From the NCBI GenBank assembly GCA_029261055.1, contig JAJDCA010000037.1, forward strand, positions 10,291 through 74,290: a stretch of 64,000 nucleotides of DNA, in the 5' to 3' direction. The stretch is from Candidatus Omnitrophota bacterium. GTDB lineage: Bacteria > Omnitrophota > Gorgyraeia > Zapsychrales > Zapsychraceae. Positions within the stretch are counted from its first letter, which is position 1; every line of letters begins with the position of its first letter. A program made the translations under genes and the position numbers. The notes under the pieces were generated by a model. That model was not told where the DNA came from. It made no database searches and saw nothing but the letters and a program-made list of their open reading frames with translations. Below, one piece after another: positions 27,604 through 27,740 of this stretch.

Positions 27604-27740
27604 GAAAATTTAGCTCAGTGGTAGAGCCCAGGTAAATACTGCCTGGAGACACTTAGCCCACACAGATTGGTGGGACAAACTAAAATGTGTAAGTAGAATT
27701 AATCGCTCTGCTGGCATAGGTTCGATTCCTGTAATTTTCA
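27604..27740 (+). tRNA. tRNA-like gene with ~70-nt insertion between anticodon and T arms
   Basis: Perfect 7-bp acceptor GAAAATT/AATTTTC, D arm GCTCAGTGGTAGAGC, anticodon arm CAGGT-AAATACT-GCCTG, 70-nt structured insert (CCCAC...GTGGG hairpin), T arm ATAGG-TTCGATT-CCTGT. Confidence 0.4.

Follow-up and report, generated by a model that had tools for sequence, protein, structure and literature searches.

The DNA analysed here, referred to below as the window, is a stretch of 64,000 nucleotides (nt) of contig JAJDCA010000037.1 (positions 10,291 to 74,290; GenBank assembly GCA_029261055.1, deposited as Candidatus Omnitrophota bacterium). It is phage DNA of 34% GC content with every gene on one strand, and within its cluster of transfer RNA (tRNA) genes we observed a tRNA-shaped RNA gene of ~137 nt at 27604-27740 (+ strand), present as one copy in the window. 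The gene joins the acceptor stem, D arm and T arm of a tRNA to an extra domain, and it belongs to a conserved RNA family not represented in Rfam 15. The following parts were observed, with N standing for any base and hp1 to hp3 for the three hairpins.

27604-27610, + strand: acceptor stem 5' strand GAAAAUU, 7/7 Watson-Crick with 27733-27739
27613-27627, + strand: D arm GCUC-AGUGGUA-GAGC with G18 and G19 present, from the Rfam tRNA alignment
27628, + strand: position 26 (C), partner of the core base N (G 27648)
27629-27645, + strand: hp1, a degenerate anticodon-arm relic, CAGGU-AAAUACU-GCCUG, with no U33 and with C at 37
27646-27652, + strand: 5' core G-A-N-ACAC (GAGACAC), of which G, A and ACAC are invariant in all members
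27653-27681, + strand: hp2, the variable hairpin, with UAG/CUA at the base, CCCAC/GUGGG at the tip and the loop ACAGAUUG (predicted fold)
27665-27669, + strand: kissing segment GAUUG of hp2, from complementarity to the hp3 loop
27682-27691, + strand: 3' core AAAAUGUGUA, with an A-rich bulge and containing UGUAA; its U-GUGU can pair with ACAC-R
27692-27712, + strand: hp3, the second hairpin of the domain, AGUAGA-AUUAAUCGC-UCUGCU (predicted fold; AGTAGA-ATTAATCGC-TCTGCT in DNA letters)
27700-27704, + strand: kissing segment UAAUC of hp3, from complementarity to the hp2 loop
27713-27715, + strand: GGN linker (GGC), equivalent to tRNA positions 46-48, with GG invariant in the alignment
27716-27732, + strand: T arm AUAGG-UUCGAUU-CCUGU, from the Rfam tRNA alignment
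27733-27740, + strand: acceptor 3' strand AAUUUUC and discriminator A, CCA not encoded

The Rfam tRNA model RF00005 matched the gene end to end over 27604-27740 with 43.9 bits (gathering score 29; E 4.7e-6 for the 64-kb window), covering model positions 1-71 of 71 and handling the extra nucleotides as one long insertion, while default ARAGORN made no tRNA call at this place. U8 and A9 lie between the acceptor stem and the D arm in the window copy. An initial annotation, made from the letters of the sequence, had described a 7-bp acceptor stem (GAAAATT/AATTTTC), a canonical D arm, a T arm with TTCGATT, an anticodon arm whose loop is AAAUACU or 9 nt, and, between the anticodon and T arms, 70 nt with a CCCAC-N8-GTGGG hairpin. 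All of these were found within the interval that it gave, the anticodon-type arm as CAGGT-AAATACT-GCCTG at 27629-27645 (or CCAGG with a 9-nt loop) and the 70 nt at 27646-27715, with CCCAC at 27657-61 and GTGGG at 27670-74. It had also proposed an Rfam scan of the insert; the tRNA model matched the whole gene, but the insert itself matched no known family.

Across the family the parts follow one order from 5' to 3', namely acceptor, positions 8-9, D arm, position 26, hp1, G-A-N-ACAC and hp2, and then AAAA-U-GUGU-A, hp3, GGN, T arm, acceptor 3' strand and discriminator. The 3' core AAAAUGUGUA was invariant in 10 of the 11 members, the variant in L227 being AAAUGUGUA, and hp2 ranged from 25 to 57 nt with no conservation of sequence. 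The stem of hp3 measured 5-9 bp and its loop 5-9 nt. Together the ACAC...UGUGU segments probably form a 5-bp helix with an AAAA bulge, a helix that we infer and that stays unproven because its pairing never varies among members. The site of the domain is that of a class II arm, after the 26:N (44-like) pair and before GGN and the T stem, whereas its content (~67 nt, two hairpins and a conserved core) departs from the single stem-loop of ~10-25 nt that characterises a class II variable arm. The CCCAC/GTGGG hairpin of the initial annotation thus exists, as the tip of hp2, but it captured the structure of the insert only in part; an account with one hairpin overlooked hp3 (27692-27712) and, with it, the potential of its loop to pair with that of hp2. 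A different assignment, in which hp3 is the anticodon arm and the insert lies at 26/27, was rejected on two grounds: the 5-9 nt loops of hp3 lack U33, and covariation of the 26:N pair puts hp1 at the anticodon position.

Eleven distinct members were identified, comprising the window copy and ten others (L063, L068, L176, L178=L190, L163=L169=L191, L192=L201, L156, L208, L226 and L227), with L164 and L166 as possible divergent members. L063 comes from a relative of the window phage, L192=L201 from a ~40-kb prophage of Alcanivorax sp. DSM 26293, and L208 from a Chitinophagaceae metagenome-assembled genome (MAG). An exact 24-mer of the 5' half of the gene had no match in IMG/VR, nothing close to the gene was present among 50,697 deposited phage genomes, and the Alcanivorax copy likewise had no BLAST match in that set. 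Neighbouring small open reading frames (ORFs) gave nothing usable as handles for relatives; a RecQ-like helicase gene 3 kb downstream of 27604-27740 worked instead, and the contigs reached through it carry many tRNAs, RtcB, PTH2 and an RNA ligase, and in one case also Ro60. In the relative L063 the Rfam tRNA model matched a gene of 143 nt, whose insert has the blocks GAGACAC and AAAATGTGTA in common with the window insert, set around a hairpin of wholly different sequence. Further members were obtained from pattern scans (conserved blocks plus T loop) of IMG/VR, JGI metagenomes and GTDB genomes. The pattern GAGACAC-N-AAAATGTGTA alone gave 69 matches in IMG/VR, all chance or coding sequence except L068, and a fuzzy motif scan found a single copy in the window. 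Every genome carried one family copy. Rfam 15 has no entry for the family, and the literature searched, which included a review of non-canonical tRNAs, did not describe it; the window copy carries the GANACAC/AAAAUGUGUA core of this new family together with the 26:N pair, the hp2/hp3 loops, GGN and the tRNA top half.

To count pairs we used a hand-designed alignment of ten members, padded with N so that MAFFT kept the columns; a covariance model was abandoned when MAFFT misaligned the variable hairpins, and the hand alignment and a leave-out profile hidden Markov model (HMM) were used in its place. Canonical pairs filled 96.6% of pair cells, compared with 66.3% when partners were shuffled (0 of 500 shuffles as high), and 31 of 40 pairs showed double-sided changes. 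Sliding the partners by 1-3 columns lowered pairing to 34-43%. Double-sided changes occurred at every position of the hp1 stem, the hp2 basal stem and the hp3 stem (5/5 pairs in hp3). Position 26 and the core base N stand in columns fixed by invariant neighbours, and their pair was Watson-Crick in 10/10 aligned members (GC in 5, CG in 4, AU in 1) and 0% paired when slid by one column either way. This covariation argues that N acts like tRNA position 44 and that the domain begins exactly at the class II long-arm site. As the counterpart of the 26:44 pair of tRNA, the 26:N pair closes the hp1 hairpin. The leave-out HMM, built from eight members with the window copy and L063 excluded, returned a single match in the window, at 27604-27740 (E 1.2e-12, 43.1 bits), and true tRNAs of the window scored at most 8 bits. 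The model fold lay 0.3-4.2 kcal/mol above the unconstrained minimum free energy in all ten members, with tertiary contacts not counted.

The terminal loops of hp2 and hp3 were complementary over 3-6 bp within each RNA, with sequences that differ between RNAs, as in the pairs below.

Window: hp2 GAUUG / hp3 UAAUC
L068: hp2 UUGAUG / hp3 CAUCAA
L156: hp2 UGAUUA / hp3 UAAUCA
L208: hp2 UGCGAA / hp3 UUCGCA
L063: hp2 AGUC / hp3 GACU
L226: hp2 UGACUC / hp3 GGGUCA
L227: hp2 GUAACC / hp3 GGUUAC
L163: hp2 GCC / hp3 GGC
L192: hp2 ACC / hp3 GGU

The summed complementarity of cognate loops was 39.5 against 26.5 +/- 2.2 for shuffled loops (0 of 5000), and permuting partners between RNAs gave p ~5e-5; the L226 and L227 pairs were added after this test. 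GCC/GGC in L163 and ACC/GGU in L192 constitute a compensatory change. Since the loops are complementary in each member while their sequences differ, the likeliest arrangement is that the two hairpins lie next to each other, docked by a kissing interaction.

Conservation of this kind bears on whether the gene could be dead, either as a tRNA pseudogene broken by a small mobile insertion or as a chance pairing in AT-rich DNA. The lack of a standard ARAGORN call and the non-canonical anticodon loop would fit such a gene, and the short motif ACAC-N-AAAATGTGTA, taken by itself, would turn up once in the window with a probability of ~6%. The same architecture is nevertheless kept through compensatory changes in unrelated phages, at one copy per genome, with the tRNA top half under obvious constraint and with the HMM match at E 1.2e-12 described above. 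We consider a dead gene extremely improbable, and the idea is already largely refuted. The initial annotation's doubt that the acceptor pairing might be a coincidence of AT-rich DNA was not borne out either, as the helix covaries in the family (7/7 pairs with double-sided changes).

The anticodon-type arm was far less constant than the rest of the molecule. A functional decoder has a 5-bp stem and a 7-nt loop with U33 and a purine at 37, whereas the window loop reads AAAUACU (A33, C37) or spans 9 nt. Across the family the hp1 loops were 4, 6, 7 or 9 nt long, with 6-nt loops in four members and a tetraloop on a 6-bp stem in L068, and L176 has no hp1 at all. L063 carries a canonical Lys loop (CUUUUAA) on an 8-bp stem, and L156, L178 and L208 have a conserved U-GAC-C, that is, U33 with GAC. 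Because the arm is not conserved, decoding is unlikely as the common function.

These loops are the evidence on which a decoding tRNA with a giant variable arm has to be judged, in which the domain would be kept and codons read, and in which odd loops and a bulky arm might guard against host anticodon nucleases. The exact placement of the domain at the class II long-arm site agrees with this idea, as do the Lys loop of L063 and the U33 and GAC of the three members named above, and tRNAs engineered to carry hairpin aptamers in the variable arm can be translationally active (PMC7590224). The window loop, the 6-nt loops and tetraloop, the missing arm of L176 and the 8-bp stem of L063 speak against it, and so does the replacement of U8 by A8 in four members. 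U8 is near-universal in tRNAs. On balance we regard a decoding tRNA as quite unlikely, and of the extended-arm tRNA suggested in the initial annotation the location at the variable-arm position stood while the decoding role did not.

An intron-containing tRNA was also weighed, in which the insert or part of it would be cut by an endonuclease or by self-cleavage and the halves joined by RtcB or an Rnl-type ligase. In intron mode ARAGORN proposed a tRNA-Ile(AAU) with a 65-nt intron at 31/32, but that solution contains a U.C mismatch and C37 and relies on an A34 Ile anticodon, which bacteria do not use, and the splice pairs the 5' strand of hp1 with the 3' strand of hp3, which are not complementary in L068, L156 and others. 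A deletion scan over all segments of ten members (9,744 variants passed through ARAGORN) gave no consistent canonical product, and its commonest solutions simply took hp1 as the anticodon arm. Ligases are at hand, as RtcB lies beside insertion-bearing tRNA-like genes in relatives (the L063 element 5 nt after RtcB, and L060 7680-7774 6 nt after it) and an RNA ligase (PF09414) is encoded 1.6 kb downstream of the window gene. Bulge-helix-bulge (BHB) motifs, in contrast, were at or below chance and had no fixed place: the strict hBHBh' motif occurred once in the window copy, where shuffled sequences predict 2.8, and no position was shared by the members. A strongly conserved tertiary structure is, moreover, more typical of a retained functional domain.

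Self-splicing found no better footing. In the window region and six other member loci, Rfam searches returned no group I or group II intron or ribozyme match (E values up to 10 in the window region) and, at relaxed E-values, no hammerhead, hepatitis delta virus (HDV)-like/theta, twister, pistol, hatchet or hairpin ribozyme; the insert measures 65-70 nt, compared with more than ~200 nt for a group I/II ribozyme core. The relaxed scans of these loci matched the tRNA model only, with no signal recognition particle (SRP) RNA, transfer-messenger RNA (tmRNA) or genuine YrlA. Theta (HDV-like) ribozymes, which lie next to phage tRNAs, were considered as a candidate and dropped with no model match to the element; PMC10879173, which covers them, gives no intron or internal case. 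An intron-less parent tRNA was sought in relatives, and none was convincing. Lak megaphages, whose tRNA introns have been called 'enigmatic' (PMC6784885), offer a precedent, but their introns lie at 37/38 in canonical loops and lack the motif. We therefore judge an intron unlikely; the intron-containing tRNA of the initial annotation is not supported by any consistent product on excision, above-chance BHB motif or group I/ribozyme match.

The RtcB neighbours lead to a further possibility, that the RNA binds a Ro60-type protein as an unpermuted relative of YrlA, within a phage module of RNA repair or quality control that includes RtcB. Bacterial rsr-yrlBA-rtcBA operons link Ro60, tRNA-like Y RNAs and RtcB. 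A YrlA-like RNA is present in the same window (35002-35065), a TROVE/Ro60 gene stands at the syntenic place in a relative (L062), and the L063 element abuts RtcB. Yet the YrlA model RF02553 gave no real match to the element, its 16.3-bit hit being an artefact that spans the T arm of tRNA-Pro and the D arm of the element; the topology is unpermuted and ends in an acceptor stem instead of a Ro-binding stem; the 716-aa ORF beside the YrlA-like RNA has no similarity to Ro60; and most members reside in small temperate phages with no Ro60 in their flanks. A Y-RNA-like role is improbable in our assessment.

A retained, non-decoding, structured tRNA-like RNA with its domain at the variable-arm position is therefore the reading that we consider probable for 27604-27740, and within it a role as mimic, decoy or binding RNA is favoured. 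The tRNA-like regulatory RNA offered by the initial annotation came closest to this among its three options in recognising a tRNA-like gene, but it did not foresee a conserved family. On the same strand within the tRNA cluster, 9 nt separate the gene from tRNA-Pro upstream and 24 nt from an amber-suppressor tRNA downstream, and for this reason it would be transcribed along with these neighbours; no signal for a promoter or terminator rose above background to divide it. As the top half looks like a tRNA, the ordinary tRNA-processing enzymes would be expected to cut the RNA out, with release by RNase P and 3' trimming followed by CCA addition as for a tRNA. CCA is encoded in the neighbouring Pro, Gly and Sup tRNAs but not in this gene, and two members (L163, L192) encode it. 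The domain would then stay in the mature RNA as the working part on a stable tRNA scaffold.

The most speculative step concerns the target. Rather than reading codons, the RNA may act as a mimic or decoy that binds a conserved bacterial partner that handles tRNA. The partner could be the factor site of the ribosome, a class-II-type synthetase or a defence nuclease directed at tRNA, and any specific target would be a guess. Because hosts span Gammaproteobacteria to Bacteroidota with no fixed protein partner, the target is probably a universally conserved tRNA-handling component. A bolder version, which we put forward tentatively and think possible but not likely, is that these RNAs form a new class of tRNA mimic with which phages act on translation or defence, or else that they reveal a new splicing route. 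As a mimic, the two-hairpin kissing module, likened to SRP Alu or a second tRNA elbow, might dock on a host target that is universally conserved, and if this is true the RNA would modulate translation or disarm immunity. RtcB-dependent cut-and-ligate removal, as a new kind of bacterial tRNA intron, is less likely than the mimic.

Several points weigh against a retained, non-decoding RNA. Columns were aligned by hand with the model as guide, and complementarity decided the choice of kissing segments; for this reason the 26:N test, the kissing-loop test and the leave-out HMM weigh more than the pair counts. The family comprises only 11 distinct sequences, several of them related (L163/L192; window/L063). 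No protein was common to the flanks of unrelated members, and neither a conserved neighbour nor a binding partner was found. RtcB directly beside insertion-bearing tRNA-like genes in relatives fits a cut-and-ligate pathway, and a subset of members may decode, given the CUUUUAA loop of L063 and the U-GAC-C of L156, L178 and L208. Finally, both the maturation of the RNA and the retention of its domain are steps that we infer.

The genomic setting of the members varied. The window, L063 and L227 copies sit in large tRNA clusters, that of L227 between tRNA-Phe and tRNA-Ile among 23 tRNAs. At 7 of 10 member loci the element was the sole tRNA-like gene within 1-13 kb, which argues against a role in completing a tRNA set. 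In the Alcanivorax prophage and in L169, a relative of that prophage, the gene lies 3' of an intrinsic terminator, downstream of a Q-like antiterminator gene and upstream of ORFs read as holin, endolysin, spanin and terminase, all of these neighbours identified by inspection of ORF translations; with identities assigned in this way, the position is the classic late-operon slot for accessory genes.

Of the tRNAs, the few tRNA-like RNAs (T4 RNA C, Y RNAs) and the unexplained "introns" known from phages, most have no assigned role. The fold described here is sharply defined and conserved and is built on a tRNA scaffold. Large lytic phages encode it within their tRNA clusters, and ~40-kb temperate phages have it as their one tRNA-like gene. 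The family lends itself well to testing whether RNAs serve as mimics in the conflict between phage and host. One of the hosts, Alcanivorax sp. DSM 26293, is a named strain of the DSM culture collection, and work by deletion, pull-down or structure probing should therefore be practicable. Being absent from Rfam, the family is missed or mislabelled by annotation pipelines, and it is a warning that calls of a "tRNA with intron" in phage genomes can hide structured non-coding RNAs.

We compared the family with known systems. Class II tRNAs and allo-tRNAs also carry extra structure between the anticodon and T arms after a 26:44-type pair, with canonical acceptor, D and T arms, but theirs is a single short stem-loop, whereas the domain described here is ~67 nt, branched, with an invariant core and a kissing second hairpin; in addition, the anticodon arm is degenerate or missing in the phage family, unlike that of class II tRNAs. 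YrlA and tmRNA are likewise non-decoding, with a tRNA top half that tRNA enzymes recognise and another functional module on the anticodon side. YrlA, however, is circularly permuted and found next to Ro60, while the element has ordinary tRNA topology, and tmRNA has G3:U70, pseudoknots and a tag ORF, while the 3:70 pair of the element is A-U and ARAGORN made no tmRNA call. The 5' domain of SRP Alu shares two adjacent hairpins joined by a UGU-A-R segment and pairing terminal loops (3-5 bp in SRP, 3-6 bp in the family), and it has been described as a mimic of the tRNA elbow that blocks the elongation-factor site (PMC4231752). The family differs in having no SRP model match, no helix 2/5 closure, flanks that are tRNA arms, none of the conserved SRP loop sequences and a UGU that is probably inside a helix. 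We read the likeness as an architectural analogy and not as homology.

As for phage RNAs, no published phage tRNA "introns" other than those of Lak megaphages turned up in the literature searched. The Lak introns too lie in oversized phage tRNA genes, enlarged by 80-115 nt, which the standard bacterial predictor fails to classify and reports as oversized pseudo tRNAs (PMC6784885), but they are located at ~37/38 in canonical anticodon loops and contain a nested T-arm-like element, and the core motif was absent from the published sequences. T4 species 1 RNA (rnaC) resembles the element as a stable RNA of ~139 nt in a phage tRNA cluster with a T arm and acceptor-like pairing, and its function is still unknown (PMC9697503). 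It differs in having no GANACAC/AAAAUGUGUA core and no recognisable common domain, and against the Rfam tRNA-family models it gave a weak tRNA-Sec match of 17.5 bits over its 3' part only. In T4 rnaC (L230, 70908-71046), which is not in Rfam, the 3' ~93 nt can be drawn as a tRNA-like unit with an 8-bp acceptor (ACGGAACG/CGUUUCGU), an AUAU/AUAU D-like arm, the hairpin GAGUAG-CGUCAA-CUACUU and a T arm, and the 46-nt 5' extension repeats GAGUAGCGU. Other enlarged tRNA genes of phages and MAGs (L003, L017, L018, L030=L044, L048=L055, L043 from IMG/VR, L193 and L172) showed perfect acceptor closure around 30-70-nt insertions of unrelated sequence, an indication that phages harbour more than one family, probably several, of such enlarged tRNA-like genes.

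Other phage genes of the window include rIIA, a UvsX-like recombinase, a DnaB-like helicase and a DNA polymerase, and an RNase T-like exonuclease is encoded upstream of the tRNA-like gene. The phage also encodes peptide deformylase, a bacterial-type initiator tRNA (1:72 mismatch) and several CCA-encoding tRNAs, and these three features point to a bacterial host. An archaeal host with BHB splicing, an idea prompted by a relative binned as Ca. Pacearchaeota, was rejected on the same features and the lack of a BHB motif. That relative, a 168-kb sequence (L060/L061; ENA ZHAN22 scaffold_14; NCBI GCA_023143585.1), carries tRNAs, RtcB, PTH2 and peptide deformylase, and its label as a Candidatus Pacearchaeota archaeon MAG is probably a binning artefact, given its bacterial-type translation features. 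In the initiator-like tRNA-Met of the window (25753-25826) positions 1 and 72 are mismatched, the anticodon stem has three G-C pairs and the D arm is irregular, and the gene was not reported by Rfam at the gathering threshold. Two amber-suppressor tRNAs (anticodon CTA) were observed, at 27765-27838 and 38327-38397. Reading TAG as sense raised the total of ORFs of at least 150 aa from 15,211 to 17,235 aa, and since long ORFs lengthen only modestly in this way, recoding of the genome is not established.

The YrlA-type element at 35002-35065 (+) has the T arm GUGGG-UUCGACU-CCCAC, an acceptor-like hairpin and a D arm, and it scored 37.3 bits (E 1.2e-6) against RF02553 over model positions 23-85 only, below the gathering score. 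It stands just upstream of the 716-aa ORF (35156-37306), and three copies of GCTTCCTTCTAA flank it (region 34870-35140). As a candidate hidden Ro60 this ORF was rejected, having no similarity to the TROVE/Ro60 of L062 or to any PDB chain. Among relatives of the window phage, tRNA-like genes with 20-70-nt insertions directly flank the RtcB gene (L060 5893-6011 and 7680-7774; L063 5830-5972), and in L060 and L063 the next tRNA-like gene follows the RtcB stop codon after 5-6 nt; the insertion-bearing copies of L060 have no GANACAC/AAAAUGUGUA core. In L068 a 391-aa ORF 1.5 kb downstream of the element begins MLKAFKYRLSPTKEQ, which by eye is typical of TnpB/IS605 OrfB RNA-guided nucleases.

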